A stretch of DNA of 20,000 nt from an uncultured virus (IMG/VR IMGVR_UViG_650716090_000002) (Duplodnaviria > Heunggongvirae > Uroviricota > Caudoviricetes): the IMG/VR virus record IMGVR_UViG_650716090_000002; one strand, 5' to 3'. The position numbers and the translations under genes were made by a program. Under the pieces are notes generated by a model. It made no database searches, was not told where the DNA came from, and worked only from the letters and a program-made list of their open reading frames with translations. Position 1 is the stretch's first letter, and the number at the start of each line of letters is the position of its first letter. Below are positions 3,256 to 13,628 of the stretch, in pieces.

Positions 3256-4475
3256 TAGATCCCCCCTCTAAATGTTTTAACTATTGTTTTACTGTGCGCA
3301 TCGCTATATATTGCATATCTCAAAGCATCAAGAACATCATCATATTCTTTTAACGGTTCATCTTTTGTGCTATTAGGTTTCCACTTATACTGATAAATCT
3401 CATCAAAAAAGCGAGGAATTACTTCACGCTTGATAAATAACTTATTTTCTTTAAACTTTTTAGCAACATCTTCTATACCAGCGATTACTGCTTTTTTTGC
3501 ATTTCTTGCCTTTAGCTTTTCTTTTTTAAACCTAGCGACATGCTCTGGCCTTGCTGAGTCAGCCCAAAAGACTACATCGCCATATTTAGCTTTGAACTCT
3601 TTTGCTCTATCAACCCACCAATCGATTTCTTTGTACTGTTCTGATATGCCATCAACAAGATATTGATTCCCTTTGATGTCTTCGCCAATAATCACAATTG
3701 AACCGTAGTGGTCATAACCCCAGTCAACGCCAGCAAAATAACGCTCCATCTCTGGTAAGTTATCCACAATGTGAATATCTTTGTTGAAATCGCTATAAAT
3801 TGCACCTTCAGCAATTGTCCAAAGGCCTAAAATATCTCTATCGTAAAACTTACCGTTGGGAGTTGCTGATTTGATGTTCTCGATATATCTTTTTGAAAGA
3901 AACGTGTTGTCATCTAACTTAAAAGCAAAATCGATGATCATCTTGTCTTTATTATTGATATAGTCACGATTAAGCCAATGGTTGGGATTGTCTGGATTGC
4001 TATCCCATACTATACGCGCATCAGTCCCAGAACACCGTGAAATGATTTCTTTGAACACTACTTCGTTAGCAAGTGACGCCTCGTTTACATAAGCACCAAA
4101 AGAAGTAAAACCACGAGCACGTTTTAGTCCACTGATTGAACCAGTATAGACTTGAACGACTTTAACACCTCTAAAAGTGAAAGAGCCATGTTTATCATAC
4201 TTAGGTTCGAAACCATATTTATTGTATAGCTCTTGCAACACGTTGTTTTGAATACTTGTTGAAGACGTGCCAGCTAATATATACATTGGTTCATCTATGC
4301 CTAATCTATCCGCTATGGATCGCACACGGTCAAGCTCAGTTATAAACGTGTCATTATTAACAACAGTCTTACCTGCTCGCTTAGCACCATGCAACCCGCA
4401 AATAAACCAGTCGTGGTTCCAAATATAACTAAGCACTTCTAATTGTCTAGGTGTGTAGATATCAGATAGGCTCAT
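3255..4475 (-). CDS. terL: Terminase large subunit, PBSX family
   Basis: Walker A GAKRAGKT, Walker B-like AYVNE, DSNP coupling motif, nuclease motifs GVDWG and DDVLDALRY. Confidence 0.95.
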   Translation of the reverse strand: MSLSDIYTPRQLEVLSYIWNHDWFICGLHGAKRAGKTVVNNDTFITELDRVRSIADRLGIDEPMYILAGTSSTSIQNNVLQELYNKYGFEPKYDKHGSFTFRGVKVVQVYTGSISGLKRARGFTSFGAYVNEASLANEVVFKEIISRCSGTDARIVWDSNPDNPNHWLNRDYINNKDKMIIDFAFKLDDNTFLSKRYIENIKSATPNGKFYDRDILGLWTIAEGAIYSDFNKDIHIVDNLPEMERYFAGVDWGYDHYGSIVIIGEDIKGNQYLVDGISEQYKEIDWWVDRAKEFKAKYGDVVFWADSARPEHVARFKKEKLKARNAKKAVIAGIEDVAKKFKENKLFIKREVIPRFFDEIYQYKWKPNSTKDEPLKEYDDVLDALRYAIYSDAHSKTIVKTFRGGI

Positions 4476-4950
4476 CAGAAATAGCCTCCTTGATTTTATT
4501 CATCAAGTTCGAAATCTTATCGTCTTGTCCTTCATCGCCACCAACTTGTAATTTAAGTTTATCGATTTCAAGTTGCATTTTTTCTGCTTGTTTAGATGTT
4601 GGATAACGCTTGAGAATTTCAACTATCGCTTTAATAACTGTGTTATTATCAGGCTTTTTAAATATTCGATTAACTTCTCCAGTTATAGGGTTCATCATCA
4701 GGATTTCTTCTTCACGCTTACCTTTTGCGATGTCGGAAAGTATCGATAAAGCTTCAGTAGCTGTTAAAATATTTTCAGACTGCATCTTCTCGACTTGATT
4801 TTCAATATATGATTTTATCCCTACATTTCCCAACAATTCTTTAGATCGTTTGTTTGCATAATTTTCACTATAACCAGCCTTGATTGCTGATTGGTAAGCA
4901 TTCCCAGAAGCGATATACTCATCTGCGAATTGTCTTTGTCTTTCGTTTAT
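4462..4950 (-). CDS. terS: Terminase small subunit (162 aa if started at ATA 4950)
   Basis: Frame extends 38 codons upstream of the track start and encodes the typical TerS HTH N-terminus (NERQRQFADEYIASGNAYQSAIKAGYS). AAAGGAG RBS at 4966-4960; in-frame TAG at 4956-4954. Confidence 0.85.
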   Translation of the reverse strand: MNERQRQFADEYIASGNAYQSAIKAGYSENYANKRSKELLGNVGIKSYIENQVEKMQSENILTATEALSILSDIAKGKREEEILMMNPITGEVNRIFKKPDNNTVIKAIVEILKRYPTSKQAEKMQLEIDKLKLQVGGDEGQDDKISNLMNKIKEAISDEPI

Positions 4951-4977
4951 TTTCTATCACTCCTTTCAATGCATAAT

Positions 4978-5000
4978 AAAAAGCCACTCAATGAGTGACT
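4978..5000 (-). terminator. Intrinsic terminator closing the structured RNA, upstream of terS
   Basis: AGTCACTCA-T-TGAGTGGCT inverted repeat followed by a T run on the minus strand. Confidence 0.7.
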
Positions 5001-5078
5001 AATTGCATATTAAGTTAGAGCGATATGCTATTCTCTAACCCCTTCGCGCTATGACCTCGTAAGGATTCATACGCTCTA

Positions 5079-5182
5079 TAGGAACAGTCGGATTCGAACC
5101 GACACTATCTCATATAGGAAGCTAGCCTATGAGCACGTATATCTATCCACGTATCAGTATTCCTCACTGATTTATATTCCTA
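5079..5182 (-). ncRNA. tRNA-like module with acceptor stem, T-arm and three internal hairpins (non-canonical cloverleaf)
   Basis: TAGGAATA/TGTTCCTA stem stacked on GTCGG-TTCGAAT-CCGAC; internal hairpins ATCAGT/ACTGAT, ACGTG/TACGT and CTCATAGG/CCTAT(AT)GAG. Confidence 0.65.
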
Positions 5183-5392
5183 ACCACTTCCACCATCTTA
5201 CACAATAGGCTAGTCATCCTATTTATGTGTGACAATGTATGACACTGAAAGCATAGTCAACTCCACTCGGCATTTGCCCGTCAGCGGTTTTACCAATCGT
5301 CATTGGAAGGAATATGACTATCAACCTCAGTAAAAACCAACACGTCAGTACGTAACTGCCTTTCGGAATGTTGGGTAGCTCTTTCGAGCAGA

Positions 5393-5433
5393 CAACCATT
5401 GCACGAATCGAACGTGCGTCGCCAGTATGGTTA
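5393..5433 (-). ncRNA. Mini tRNA-like module (acceptor stem + T-arm, no D or anticodon arm)
   Basis: TAACCAT-ACTGGCGAC-GCACG-TTCGATT-CGTGC-A-ATGGTTG. Confidence 0.65.
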
Positions 5434-5469
5434 CAGCAAATATCTAAAGCGGTCTGTTTTTAAGACCTA

Positions 5470-5517
5470 TTGAGATAGCAGGAATCGAACCTGCGATACT
5501 TCCAATGATTATCTCAA
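5470..5517 (-). ncRNA. Mini tRNA-like module (acceptor stem + T-arm)
   Basis: TTGAGATA-ATCATTGGAAGTATC-GCAGG-TTCGATT-CCTGC-TATCTCAA. Confidence 0.65.
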
Positions 5518-5640
5518 CTGGTTCCCGTTGGGGTACCGTTCCAATTCAAAATAGTAAGTTCGATTTATTTATAAGTAATCGTCTAATCATATGTAGACCA
5601 GTTGTTAATTGTTATCTCTTCTTACTATTTCGATAATATA

Positions 5641-5660
5641 ATAATAACACGTATTATTAT
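5641..5660 (-). promoter_or_regulatory. Probable late promoter: extended -10 (TG-T-TATTAT) within a 20-bp near-palindrome
   Basis: ATAATAATAC/GTGTTATTAT directly after the arpU stop; no good -35, consistent with an activator-dependent promoter; predicted +1 (~5634) coincides with the first helix of the structured RNA. Confidence 0.55.
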
Positions 5661-5667
5661 GCATAAA

Positions 5668-6117
5668 CTATTCATTTACTGTATAAAAACTAGCCTCTTT
5701 CTCCACAATTAGAGAACCCTCTCGATACAGTTCCGCAAAGGCTAATAAAGCTATTTCTAGCTCATCATAATACATGCTCTCAGATATACATAATTCTGCA
5801 TAAATCATCTTATCAGATTTTTTATAATTACTTAGATACTTGTCGTATAAGATTTTTCTTCTTTCCGCTTCAAGTATATTGCTTACCGCTTGTTCAATTG
5901 CTTCAAGTTCGCTCTCTGCATCCACTCTAGTAATTGCCAATCTCTCAACTGGTTTACTAGGTGCGCCGTGAGCTTGTCTTGGCTCAAATGAATAAGTAGC
6001 TGTTATCTTTTGTTTGTCCACATCTTGAGCGATTCGTCTCCAACGTGGATATTCTCTTAGTTTACGCTTTGCATTTGCTTTGGTTTTCTTTTCGTCAATC
6101 TCTGGAAAAAACATCAA
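5668..6117 (-). CDS. arpU: ArpU-family phage late transcriptional regulator
   Basis: FPEIDEKKTKANAKRKLREYPRWRRIA N-terminus, C-terminal HTH ending ALLAFAELY; located before the packaging module. Confidence 0.9.
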   Translation of the reverse strand: MMFFPEIDEKKTKANAKRKLREYPRWRRIAQDVDKQKITATYSFEPRQAHGAPSKPVERLAITRVDAESELEAIEQAVSNILEAERRKILYDKYLSNYKKSDKMIYAELCISESMYYDELEIALLAFAELYREGSLIVEKEASFYTVNE

Positions 6118-6131
6118 TCAGCCCCCATTTA

Positions 6132-6188
6132 TGGTATAATATAGTTACGAACATATACCAAGGCGCTCTTTCGTGGGGCGCTTTTTGT
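6132..6188 (+). ncRNA. Short antisense transcription unit opposite the arpU leader
   Basis: TGGTATAAT at 6132-6140, then terminator GGCGCTCT-TTCG-TGGGGCGC-TTTTT at about 6162-6186. Confidence 0.55.
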
Positions 6189-6353
6189 TGTCTTATCGGA
6201 GTAGCTATACCTCTTTTCTTTTTTATTTTCGGACAGGCACACGATCCGCATTGAAATTCTCACGATGCCTTACTTAATTTCAGATAACCGATAATCTGAT
6301 TTAGATTAGTATTTATGGCGTAAGGAGACCTCCATTTTTTAATTTCGGTTAAT

Positions 6354-6394
6354 ACCAACCGCAGGAATCGAACCTGCGTGATACCTTTGTTGGT
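6354..6394 (-). ncRNA. Fourth mini tRNA-like module, upstream of arpU
   Basis: ACCAAC-AAAGGTATCAC-GCAGG-TTCGATT-CCTGC-G-GTTGGT; 17-nt T-arm identical to the 5470-5517 module. Confidence 0.65.
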
Positions 6395-6570
6395 TATAAT
6401 TCTTTAAGTGGCACAAATTTAAATTGTGGAAACTGTTCTGCTTCTTTACGTGTGATATGACGTGCTTTATTGATATTCATTGTCATGACTAAAAAACCAG
6501 CCCTACTTCTCCACAGAACGTAATAATTTTCATCTATTTTTGACTGCAACACTCCTAATTCTTCGTTCAC
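6394..6570 (-). CDS. Small phage protein, 58 aa, paralog of 7386-7604 (MNEELGVLQSKID...TRKEAEQFPQFKFVPLKEL)
   Basis: Translated by hand; GTGA coupling to the upstream gene; shares both termini with 7386-7604. Confidence 0.8.
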   Translation of the reverse strand: MNEELGVLQSKIDENYYVLWRSRAGFLVMTMNINKARHITRKEAEQFPQFKFVPLKEL

Positions 6571-6935
6571 TCCTCTACCTCTTTTACTTCGTAGTTAGGA
6601 TTTTCAAACACTTCTTCAAATCCTATTCTTTTTAATTGTGTACGTGTAAATTTATGACTAAATTGAGGTGCATAATCGTCAGTATCAGACCAAAAGCATT
6701 TGCCTGTTTCGCTGTCGTAATTAAGAACATTGACACATTCATCCAATCTTTTATCAACAACTATGTATCTTGTTTCATCAGCCATAAGTTCCAAATAAAG
6801 TTCAGGGATTTCAAATCTTGTTCCGTTTGGCAACTCTAGAACAAGTTTTGGATTAGACCAAGAAGAATCAAGAAAACTTCTCTCTTCTTCAATGACTCTT
6901 GCAGTTAGTTTAACTTCTTTTCCTAAATAGCTCAT
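6567..6935 (-). CDS. Hypothetical phage protein
   Basis: ORF track; ATGA coupling; EVKEVEE tail carries the next RBS. Confidence 0.8.
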   Translation of the reverse strand: MSYLGKEVKLTARVIEEERSFLDSSWSNPKLVLELPNGTRFEIPELYLELMADETRYIVVDKRLDECVNVLNYDSETGKCFWSDTDDYAPQFSHKFTRTQLKRIGFEEVFENPNYEVKEVEE

Positions 6936-7147: not shown

Positions 7148-7389
7148 AATTCCCTCACTGATACCCAAACATAATCTGGATACTTCTCCATTGATATTTC
7201 TTTACTGATTAAACAATCACGCTGATAATTATGATTATTCAACAGAATTTCACTAGCAAGTGTTTTCGGCACCTCAATTGTAGGTGGTCCTACTTTCTGA
7301 CCGTTTACATATTCTTTTAGGTTTTTAAACGTGTAATCAGTTTCTGTCTCACTTACTATAACCGCTCCTACCCAATCTGGTTCATTCAT
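7144..7389 (-). CDS. Hypothetical phage protein
   Basis: ORF track; ATGA coupling; GGAGGAG RBS. Confidence 0.75.
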   Translation of the reverse strand: MNEPDWVGAVIVSETETDYTFKNLKEYVNGQKVGPPTIEVPKTLASEILLNNHNYQRDCLISKEISMEKYPDYVWVSVREL

Positions 7390-7604
7390 CTTAACTCCTC
7401 CAATTCTTTAAGTGGAACAAATTTAAATTGTGGAAACTGTTCTGCTTCTTTGCGTGTGCAGTGGTAGGCGTATTCTAAACACTCTTCTTTTTCATCTGTT
7501 TCCAAAATCGTAAATTTTTCTCTTTTTGTAAGCGTAGTTAATAAAACATATCTAAACCAACTATTTTGTAACTCTAGCAATAACACTCCTAATTCTTCGT
7601 TCAT
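7386..7604 (-). CDS. Small phage protein, paralog of 6394-6570
   Basis: ORF track; shared terminal repeats. Confidence 0.8.
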   Translation of the reverse strand: MNEELGVLLLELQNSWFRYVLLTTLTKREKFTILETDEKEECLEYAYHCTRKEAEQFPQFKFVPLKELEELR

Positions 7605-12700: not shown

Positions 12701-13628
12701 TCATCAAGTCTCCTAAATTATCAAATAATGGGATATCTTCGATTTCACCAGTTTCAGAATTATATTCAGGAATTTCAGTATCTTCTAAAACGTCCGTATT
12801 TTCTTCTGTGACCTCGTTTTGTTGTTCTGCGACTAAATCTTCGGTAACATCCTTGACAGGCTTGTTTGGTAGGTTATTTTCAGTCTGAGGAGCTAATAGG
12901 TCAGATAAGTCATTGTTATTTTGAGGAGTAATGTCTTTTACCTTTCGTTCTTCGTCAAATTCGTTTGCAGTTGTTCGATTTACTGCGTCTACAAATAAAT
13001 CATTATCATCACTAGTATTAAAGAATTGTTTGGCTGCTCGATTAATGACTGTTCTTTTTGCCATTTCTTGCGGAAAATCATTTTGGACATTTTTTATCTT
13101 AGATTTTGACCAAGACTTATCGATTTCTTTTTTTGTCATAACTGTCAGAATTTTTTCCCCATCCTCTTTTTCAATTATGCAATATGACCCAACAATTTCA
13201 TTGTCTGCATTCATCCAGTCAGTATCGTGGCTAACAAAGACTTTGCGCCCGTTCTCATTCTTAATTTTGAAATCATCCCCCTTGTAGATAACTTCTGCAT
13301 AAATATCTTTTACTTCAGGCAACTGTTTTACAACTTTCATAGTCCCGAAGTATGATCTGGTTAGTTTAACTGTATTCCCATAAGGGATAAAGTAACATTG
13401 GCTTTTTGCTGGTGATAATCCTTGCGTTACCATATCCAACAGAGCATTATAAATACTATCTTGATCTTTATTTAGTAGACTTCCGTTTTTTAGCGCATAG
13501 TATGCTGAGCTTAAAGCATTGCTTACACTATAATTTGGAGCAATCATCAATCCGTCACCGTCTTGCATTTGACTGATTCTAGTTGCGACACTTGAAGTCA
13601 CTTGTTTTTGTGTTAATTCATTGGCCAT
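12693..13628 (-). CDS. recT: RecT-family single-strand annealing recombinase
   Basis: QGLSPAKSQCYFIPYG, RSYFG and EMAKRTVINRAAK motifs; acidic tail. Confidence 0.92.
   Translation of the reverse strand: MANELTQKQVTSSVATRISQMQDGDGLMIAPNYSVSNALSSAYYALKNGSLLNKDQDSIYNALLDMVTQGLSPAKSQCYFIPYGNTVKLTRSYFGTMKVVKQLPEVKDIYAEVIYKGDDFKIKNENGRKVFVSHDTDWMNADNEIVGSYCIIEKEDGEKILTVMTKKEIDKSWSKSKIKNVQNDFPQEMAKRTVINRAAKQFFNTSDDNDLFVDAVNRTTANEFDEERKVKDITPQNNNDLSDLLAPQTENNLPNKPVKDVTEDLVAEQQNEVTEENTDVLEDTEIPEYNSETGEIEDIPLFDNLGDLMNG

Follow-up and report, generated by a model that had tools for sequence, protein, structure and literature searches.

A predicted leader RNA with a tRNA-like minihelix precedes late-activator genes in temperate phages of pyogenic-group streptococci

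Processing signals that resemble transfer RNAs (tRNAs) include mascRNA at the 3′ end of MALAT1, the tRNA 'punctuation' of mitochondrial transcripts and phage RNAs flanked by tRNAs. Phage regulators, for their part, can be controlled by antisense RNAs, as with lambda paQ against Q, OOP against cII and P22 sar. The late activators of temperate phages are a further class of regulators, and the timing of their own expression is, to our knowledge, poorly known. In the accessible text of Quiles-Puchalt et al. (2013; PMC3753634), the activator families ArpU, RinA and DUF1492/LtrB activate terS transcription, and constitutive expression would be premature. GOLLD, according to the available part of a preprint by Kretsch et al. 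(10.1101/2024.12.08.627333), is a large structured phage RNA of unknown function. Here we describe, in a stretch of 20,000 nucleotides (nt) from an uncultured virus (IMG/VR IMGVR_UViG_650716090_000002; the window), a predicted folded RNA that opens with a tRNA-like minihelix at a stop codon and precedes the gene of an ArpU-family late activator.

On comparative evidence, minus-strand positions 6190–6397 are a member of a conserved folded intergenic RNA of about 205 nt, which we name the ltr leader; in temperate phages of pyogenic-group streptococci it separates the last early gene from the gene of the late activator (Ltr). Sensitive BLAST with 6118–6400 as the query returned 67 phage records, exclusively from Streptococcus, 29 of them covering at least 80% of the query; the hosts include S. 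pyogenes, S. parauberis, S. iniae, S. porcinus, S. pseudoporcinus and S. urinalis. A covariance model built from 19 phages (R1) matches the window along the full leader (6190–6397, 194.6 bits, E 3.4e-35). A motif pattern picked out 108 stretches in viral contigs; 80 of these loci were examined and R1 matches 63 of them, every one full-length, at 69–227 bits. Among 80 pattern loci from bacterial genome contigs, R1 found none at E ≤ 0.01; that scan, with at least 120 stretches from unrelated taxa, used a pattern too loose for the collection, serves as a specificity control only and is uninformative on taxonomic range. The sequence-only reading of this DNA had named a lack of conservation in related prophages, together with a lack of processing, as grounds for giving up its proposal of tRNA mimicry here; the leader is conserved.

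Rfam 15 reports nothing in the window at its gathering scores, riboswitch and ribozyme classes included, and gives sub-threshold matches only at E ≤ 10 over 4700–6700; the leaders of loci L133, L004 and L017 have no Rfam match at E ≤ 1. In the literature searched, which left aside the supplementary tables of PMC6431027 with their possible transcription starts, the leader is nowhere described. The leader, with no Rfam family, appears to be undescribed; processing signals that resemble tRNAs, and control of phage regulators by antisense RNA, are already known kinds of element.

The minihelix (minus strand, 6394–6353) has covarying stems and is a minimum-free-energy fold. It consists of an acceptor-like stem of 6 base pairs (bp) (P1, 6394–6389 with 6359–6354), a 10-nt linker (AAAGGUAUCA, 6388–6379), a T-arm stem of 6 bp (P2, 6378–6373 with 6365–6360) and the 7-nt T-loop UUCGAUU (6372–6366), and ends in an unpaired A (6353) followed by UU. 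A T-arm with a loop of the UUCRANY type is thus stacked on an acceptor stem to give 12 bp (6 + 6). The third base of the TAA stop codon (6396–6394) of the last early open reading frame (ORF) is the first base of the minihelix stem, and in the alignment of 19 phages the conserved block starts at the stop codons of otherwise unrelated upstream ORFs. The sequence-only reading had placed a 41-nt acceptor and T-arm module (CCAAC...GGTA, 6393–6353) directly past this stop codon, and it does lie there; so, too, GCAGGTTCGATTCCTGC in its T-arm (6377–6361) is identical to 5494–5478 and GTATC is present in its linker, as claimed. The longest word common to the two T-arm sites is 18 nt, against a chance expectation of about 2e-6 exact 17-mers. 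Folded alone, the module adopts the drawn structure as its energy minimum; at −14.9 kcal/mol (z −3.07) it is equalled by 1 of 200 shuffles. It is not a whole tRNA. ARAGORN, which also covers transfer-messenger RNA (tmRNA), predicts no tRNA or tmRNA gene in the window, and we reject both identities; the Rfam tRNA model (RF00005) has no gathering hit, leaves 6352–6394 unreported even with loose thresholds and gives the best module in the window, the downstream module M1 described below, 22.2 bits against a cut-off of 29.

Variation among the phages preserves this architecture. P1 occurs as CCAAC/GUUGG, CCAAU/GUUGG and CCCCAC/GUGGGG, and P2 covaries (GCAGG/CCUGC, GAGCG/CGCUC, GCACG/CGUGC) around a loop that stays UUCRANU. 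The UUCRA loop, a GG-containing linker and the 12-bp stack are kept in phages of S. parauberis, S. pyogenes, S. iniae, S. porcinus and S. pseudoporcinus; the GG of the linker in this T-loop form could stand in for G18–G19 of the tRNA D-loop. These patterns argue that the upstream minihelix is conserved under selection. The T-loop form, with loop UUCRANU, is found in 18 of 46 distinct leaders. Another 17 carry a second minihelix form with loop UGCRAU, laid out in the same way as a 6-bp outer stem, a 10–11-nt linker and, stacked on the 3′ strand, an inner stem of 6 bp, and here the loop is kept on stems as different as AGAGCC/GGCUCU and CAGGUC/GAUCUG. A plain hairpin adjoins the ACCGA segment in the other 11; in six of these an intact UGCRAU minihelix directly follows the stop codon, some 90 nt further upstream, while two retain truncated remnants and three lack a minihelix altogether. 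In all, 41 of the 46 carry, at the stop codon of the upstream ORF, an intact minihelix whose loop reads U-N-C-R-A.

The covariation extends over the rest of the leader. Tested on an unfitted MAFFT alignment of the 19 phages, the 27 proposed pairs are formed in 95.2% of cells and 13 of them change on both sides; the covariation score is 0.410, compared with 0.170 in shuffles (0 of 500 reach 0.410) and at most 0.107 when partners are slid by 1–3 columns. A second alignment, fitted to the model and hence biased towards the structure, gives for 46 distinct of 69 rows 95.1% paired cells, compensatory changes in 19 of 27 pairs and a score of 0.436 against at most 0.100 after sliding. From the MAFFT alignment, RNAalifold recovered only P1 and P3; the structure was supplied by hand because the two minihelix types are offset by one column. 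Covariation analysis of such leaders had been proposed as a check in the sequence-only reading, and the minihelix stems, ACCGA/UCGGU and TCAGAT/ATCTGA do covary across phages.

Downstream of the minihelix, the segment AACCGA (minus strand, 6350–6345) pairs with 6291–6286 in the loop of hairpin P3. The complementarity had been seen before, and TAACCGA (6351–6345) is the exact reverse complement of TCGGTTA (6291–6285). The outer pair of this helix switches between A-U and G-C (9 AU, 9 GC and 1 other in the 19 phages; 35 GC, 10 AU and 1 other among the 46 distinct leaders), and together ACCGA and the P3 loop form, to judge by this exchange, an H-type pseudoknot. P3 itself (6299–6294 with 6285–6280, minus strand) encloses the loop UAUCGGUU (6293–6286), is paired in 100% of cells and has compensatory changes in five of six pairs. 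It is the TCAGAT (6299)/ATCTGA (6285) stem of the sequence-only reading, which had drawn CCTTAC (6325)/GTAAGG (6273) around it. All four strands are present and the inner stem covaries; the outer one shows no covariation, retains only four invariant pairs (CCUU/AAGG) and is no more than a candidate, in competition with hairpin P4 for two G residues. Of two further stems proposed there, GCAT/ATGC and CGGA/TCCG, both occur in the window and neither is found in the S. pyogenes members, and we reject them as not conserved; a covarying GGCR/YGCC hairpin takes their place. This variable hairpin, P4 (6269–6236; GGCA 6269–6266 with UGCC 6239–6236), carries a conserved AUCGUG on its 3′ side, ranges from about 13 to about 45 nt among phages, and is 100% paired with compensatory changes in three of four pairs (46 sequences). 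An optional small hairpin, P5 (GAG-G-UA/UACUC, inside an A-rich tract; 6213–6199), was read from the alignment with no formal count and is absent in Javan393, Javan383 and Javan407.

Between the stems lie invariant single-stranded segments: CUCCUUAC, AAUCUAA, AUUAUUCAAGG and CCUGU. The first (6327–6320, minus strand), invariant in the alignment, resembles an anti-Shine–Dalgarno sequence, and its candidate partners are AAGG at 6271–6268 or a Shine–Dalgarno-like run further downstream. G-U pairs are abundant in P3 and P1 and would be A-C mismatches on the other strand, for which reason we take the leader RNA to act on the minus (sense) strand. A conserved small ORF within the leader is rejected, the ATG near 6334 of the window being absent in the S. 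pyogenes members.

Beside the leader, on the plus strand, lies an element that the sequence-only reading had overlooked: a predicted antisense small RNA (sRNA) gene of about 45 nt with promoter and terminator (6132–6192). Its extended −10 element TGGTATAAT (6132–6140) predicts a start near 6147, and a terminator scan places the stem at 6160–6184 with a U-run to about 6190, folding at −14.0 kcal/mol on the plus strand versus −5.8 on the minus strand. Of 37 distinct homologous sequences, 35 have TGnTATAAT, hairpin and T-run, and there is covariation in the terminator stems. The conserved ATTATACCA, which closely precedes the ribosome-binding site of arpU, is, read on the plus strand, this same TGGTATAAT, a TGnTATAAT, and its spacing from TTGGT varies; a sense-strand arpU promoter is unsupported.

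The cassette has an expressed counterpart. Le Rhun et al. (2016; PMC4829319), in the portions available, list Spy_sRNA1212757 of S. pyogenes prophage 370.2, 43 nt long with predicted promoter and terminator and a 42-nt Northern band, between the hypothetical genes SPy_1469 and SPy_1470 and with no target assigned. Its Northern probe, as given there, has an exact sense-strand match in 11 of 132 loci, immediately 3′ of the leader, and the window cassette shares its defining traits: an extended −10, a terminator about 45 nt away, antisense orientation and a place just upstream of the activator. From the exact probe matches it follows that the predicted antisense sRNA corresponds, as its homologue in S. 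pyogenes, to this known sRNA, which is expressed in lysogens and whose context and target are unstated in the parts of the survey drawn on here; SPy_1469 is presumably the late-activator gene. The window version agrees with the reported sRNA in position, orientation, extended −10 promoter, length and terminator; its sequence has diverged, with no exact probe match, and the sRNA is a neighbour of the leader rather than the leader itself. Spy_sRNA792465 (47 nt, prophage 370.3), going by its entry in the same survey, may be of the same kind.

Leader and cassette together precede activators of three families. The window has ArpU, locus L065 has RinA (TIGR01636, 56.1 bits), and DUF1492/LtrB genes follow in L029 (170.7 bits), L051 (64.5), L052 (30.1) and L036 (26.8). 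An activator-type start lies just downstream of 66 of 69 leader matches, the exceptions being two upstream tandem copies and L057. One such tandem arrangement is in L004 (same contig as L049), with leaders at 1057–1222 and 1244–1429; in its upstream copy a plain hairpin replaces the minihelix and the antisense cassette is absent.

We found no conserved promoter upstream of the leader, and the leader is therefore presumably part of the early transcript. Our preferred reading, to which we give a probability of roughly 45%, is that RNase P, RNase Z or both cut the minihelix, that the pseudoknotted remainder governs the activator message and that the antisense sRNA quenches stray transcripts. The minihelix would mimic the part of a tRNA that is read by RNase P, RNase Z and the CCA-adding enzyme, and would act as a processing 'punctuation mark' at which the early message is cut just past the upstream stop codon. 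This would leave a compact pseudoknotted RNA at the new 5′ end, on which the stability of the activator message and its translation would depend, and the constitutive antisense sRNA, pairing 33–76 nt upstream of the activator start, would silence stray transcripts in the lysogen, so that minihelix, pseudoknot and sRNA could together form a threshold gate on the early-to-late switch. Processing by tRNA enzymes, considered alone, is plausible. The same phage group offers a precedent for punctuation, in that GOLLD ends 10 nt (L004) and 6 nt (L007) before a tRNA.

Several observations weigh against this reading. Five of the 46 distinct leaders have no intact minihelix, and the 6-nt loop of the UGCRAU variant deviates from a tRNA T-loop. 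RNase P measuring 12 bp from the T-loop would, in the window variant, place its cut within the UAA stop codon. It is part of the general background to this argument that minihelices can serve as substrates for RNase P, RNase Z and the CCA-adding enzyme, and that RNase Z is helped by a U next to the unpaired base on its 3′ side. The whole 283-nt stretch folds no better than shuffles (z −0.42), and folding energy alone therefore gives the larger structure no support. ArpU-type genes in L005–L007 have the antisense pattern and no leader (R1 has no match at these loci with ArpU homologues), and the satellite phage Javan387 (L254) has an ArpU-family gene (46.6 bits) and an antisense cassette, again with no leader; leader and antisense cassette can therefore occur apart, and activator genes do not require the leader, which is an accessory. 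The supplement of the sRNA survey of an uninduced triple lysogen (PMC4829319), as far as it is available, lists no sRNA from the leader itself, which would fit a leader made only with the early lytic transcript. Transcript data are also ambiguous: a homologous stretch (L033) appears in 20 RNA runs from nine studies as long contigs that are possibly DNA (two contig runs included), and two raw-read RNA runs, apparently unstranded, are covered on both strands, their reads stemming from paralogous prophage copies whose minihelix variants differ.

Two side observations belong to these loci. One of the raw-read RNA runs has 16 fragments starting at L033 622/623, where three reads also enter adapter; the position is the A-rich stretch before CGAGAACCUCC of the leader and could be a processing site or an artefact. 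In Javan387 (L254 1200–1730) the antisense cassette is 87.5% identical over 69 nt, and there is a second ATATTATACCAT copy.

Other readings account for part of the evidence. The leader might be a trans-acting non-coding RNA, excised at the minihelix on its 5′ side and at the sRNA:mRNA duplex on its 3′ side, that targets some partner in the host or the phage (ribosomes, for instance, by way of ACCUCCUU, which resembles the 16S tail) or that assembles into a multimer through an intermolecular 'pseudoknot' as in ROOL and GOLLD. Long invariant single-stranded segments that persist although the stems have diverged across phages would suit such a role, as would the roughly 58 nt between the pseudoknot strands, which makes intermolecular pairing possible, and the presence of GOLLD and tRNAs in the next intergenic gap of the same phage group. 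The leader is also dispensable for activator genes as such, and the upstream copy of the tandem leaders in L004/L049 does not adjoin an activator. Yet the activator-type start just downstream of nearly all matches (66 of 69) ties the leader to its neighbour, the available lysogen survey lists no stable leader-derived sRNA, and we know of no partner; we consider this reading doubtful. In its most far-reaching form, the leader would be a new class of phage regulatory RNA, trans-acting or self-associating, freed by tRNA-type punctuation and the antisense duplex, whose invariant loops, including ACCUCCUU as a copy of the 16S ribosomal RNA tail, engage the host translation or tRNA machinery and in this way time the switch from early to late genes, a speculation that we hold no more than tentatively. 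If true, the regulatory leader would be a small relative, in kind and not in sequence, of the GOLLD and ROOL RNAs in the next gap of sister phages. A ligand- or factor-sensing, riboswitch-like switch seems unlikely. On this view AAGG would either pair with CUCCUU or close P4, depending on whether the pseudoknot has formed, and the anti-Shine–Dalgarno-like CUCCUUAC, freed or hidden in consequence, would in turn mask the ribosome-binding site of the activator. The architecture, a conserved core with variable peripheral stems, is riboswitch-like, and CUCCUU (6327–6322) and CCUG (6237–6234) can each pair with the invariant AAGG (6271–6268), to the exclusion of the other. Neither alternative covaries, because all partners are invariant, and the switch would have to do with no sense-strand terminator in the terminator scan, no matching Rfam riboswitch class and a ribosome-binding site about 200 nt away, past the antisense cassette.

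The remaining readings deny the minihelix, or the RNA, its function. The minihelix might be an evolutionary leftover, a phage tRNA fragment copied by recombination that is at most a stabilising hairpin and involves no tRNA enzyme. M1 is visibly a cut-down tRNA whose L004 homologue is a predicted tRNA by both ARAGORN and Rfam, the 18 nt that both window T-arms have in common suggest a recent exchange, and plain hairpins adjoin ACCGA in some leaders. We nevertheless judge a leftover quite unlikely: the T-stem covaries while the UUCRA loop, GG linker and 12-bp stack are kept across phages of five host species, a second minihelix type has the same architecture and U-N-C-R-A loop on different stems, and no locus showed the upstream module as a full-length tRNA. 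Conservation might also reflect DNA or the opposite strand, for example a recombination boundary, a site bound by a protein, or antisense sRNA transcription that reads through. The block begins exactly at a gene boundary, a common joint of mosaic phage modules, and the antisense promoter is directed into the region, but compensatory changes keep the pairs, many of them G-U and so A-C mismatches on the other strand, and the strong antisense terminator ends at 6190, before the region; this we regard as very improbable.

The surroundings of the leader are those of a prophage. The window derives from a Streptococcus parauberis prophage, and 4837–6570 matches Streptococcus phage Javan384 (host S. 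parauberis KCTC_11537) over its full length at 99.9% identity. On the minus strand, small early ORFs are followed by a last early ORF of 58 aa (phrog_2397, 6394–6570), a 276-nt gap, the activator gene (5668–6114), an 830-nt gap, terS (4462–4836), terL and the portal gene. The activator starts at the ATG at 6114, or possibly, from the ORF list, at a TTG at 6117. It belongs to the ArpU family (TIGR01637, 141.2 bits against a cut-off of 43.1), so that the name arpU given to it earlier is right, and it matches phrog_248 (transcriptional activator) at E 3e-47; a Pfam search with the protein gave no hit. A locus search with the ArpU protein yielded five loci only. The last early ORF has a paralogue, also phrog_2397, at 7386–7604 (minus strand), with which it shares its first eight residues and the C-terminal RKEAEQFPQFKFVPLKEL; the copy adjoining the leader is seven codons shorter, and its end is the exact start of the minihelix.

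Downstream of the activator gene, before terS, lie three further tRNA-like elements on the minus strand. Module M1 (5516–5470) has a 7-bp acceptor stem UGAGAUA/UAUCUCA, a 15-nt linker and the same T-arm as 6394–6353. Its 3′ part (5492–5469), with T-arm and 3′ acceptor strand, matches the 3′ portion of a full-length predicted tRNA situated behind GOLLD in L004 (2911–2987; ARAGORN anticodon tta, 'Stop'), and the same acceptor pair spans a 15-nt linker in the window and Javan443, 44 nt in L004 and 53 nt in L003 (about 2100–2200). M1 is probably a cut-down tRNA that keeps the acceptor/T-arm half, and it looks like the product of an internal deletion. Module M2 (5432–5393) has the T-arm GCACG-UUCGAUU-CGUGC and a weak 6-bp acceptor-like pairing; the minihelix is not its minimum-free-energy fold (z 0.07), and the T-arm alone is conserved in L002 and L004. 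M3 (5163–5081) is a degenerate long tRNA-like element with the T-arm GUCGG-UUCGAAU-CCGAC and acceptor-like pairing at a 54-nt linker, which the Rfam tRNA-Sec model scores below threshold (17.9 bits, E 2.9). Relatives have predicted tRNA genes between activator and terS (Lys in L002, Val in L003, Ser and the anticodon-tta tRNA in L004, Phe in L007), and GOLLD (RF02032) lies between the ArpU gene and terS in L004 (2516–2900, 245 bits) and L007 (1328–1713, 262 bits). The window itself has no GOLLD of at least 150 bits, nor any match at gathering score or, within 4700–6700, at E ≤ 10. The idea that tRNA mimics flank arpU is right in that acceptor/T-arm minihelices do occur on both sides, but those downstream are homologous to parts of real phage tRNA genes beside GOLLD in relatives. 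They are part of a separate tRNA/non-coding RNA island at the head of the late region and not of the arpU message.

In the 20-kb window there are six T-arm-like hairpins, against 1.4 expected (at least four in 18 of 300 shuffles), a surplus that we do not count as support, and four of the six flank arpU. Outside these flanks, hairpins with a TTCRANN loop and a 5-bp stem lie at 13596 (minus) and 9502 (plus), the former with no acceptor-like pairing; given the 1.4 expected per window, both are probably chance. A sense-strand intrinsic terminator (AGTCACTCATTGAGTGGCT plus TTTTT, 5000–4982, minus strand) stands just upstream of the terS ribosome-binding site and is conserved in Javan488 (L133, about 1912–1935). 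The tRNA-like island may thus be its own transcription unit, or the late genes may need read-through. In Javan488, the probe given in the available sRNA data for Spy_sRNA544833 (84 nt, sense, prophage 370.1) falls at L133 1751–1780, about 100 nt downstream of the activator and just before a T-loop-like element homologous to window positions 5100–4972.

The ArpU, RinA and LtrB activators decide the timing of packaging and lysis in Gram-positive temperate phages and hence, according to the accessible text of PMC3753634, also govern when phages move virulence genes and satellites. A structured RNA and an antisense sRNA before all three families, in prophages of S. pyogenes and related streptococci, would offer a testable control point, and an orphan sRNA detected by Northern blot gains a context and a likely target. 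Whether tRNA-type punctuation operates in a bacterial virus could, moreover, be tested cleanly on a natural case such as a messenger RNA with a covarying 41-nt acceptor/T-arm minihelix.

Set beside known systems, the minihelix differs from a tRNA (RF00005) in having no D-arm and no anticodon arm, and resembles one in its 7-nt loop UUCGAUU and its 5–6-bp stem on a 6–7-bp acceptor-like stem, followed by an unpaired purine. The leader adjoins tRNA-like elements in the same phage group, as GOLLD adjoins tRNAs; unlike GOLLD it is only about 205 nt long and lies on the other side of the activator gene, with no detectable similarity to it. With mascRNA and mitochondrial punctuation it has in common an acceptor/T-arm placed within a longer transcript at a gene boundary, a T-loop consensus and the lack of an encoded CCA, whereas the module here spans only 41–43 nt, has neither D-arm nor anticodon arm and is set in a bacterial phage message directly against a stop codon. 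The sRNA, finally, lies opposite a 5′ untranslated stretch, 33–76 nt upstream of the start codon, and covers neither the coding region nor the ribosome-binding site, in which it departs from lambda paQ and OOP and P22 sar; like them, it would be a short constitutive antisense RNA opposite the message of a regulator that commits the phage to its next stage.

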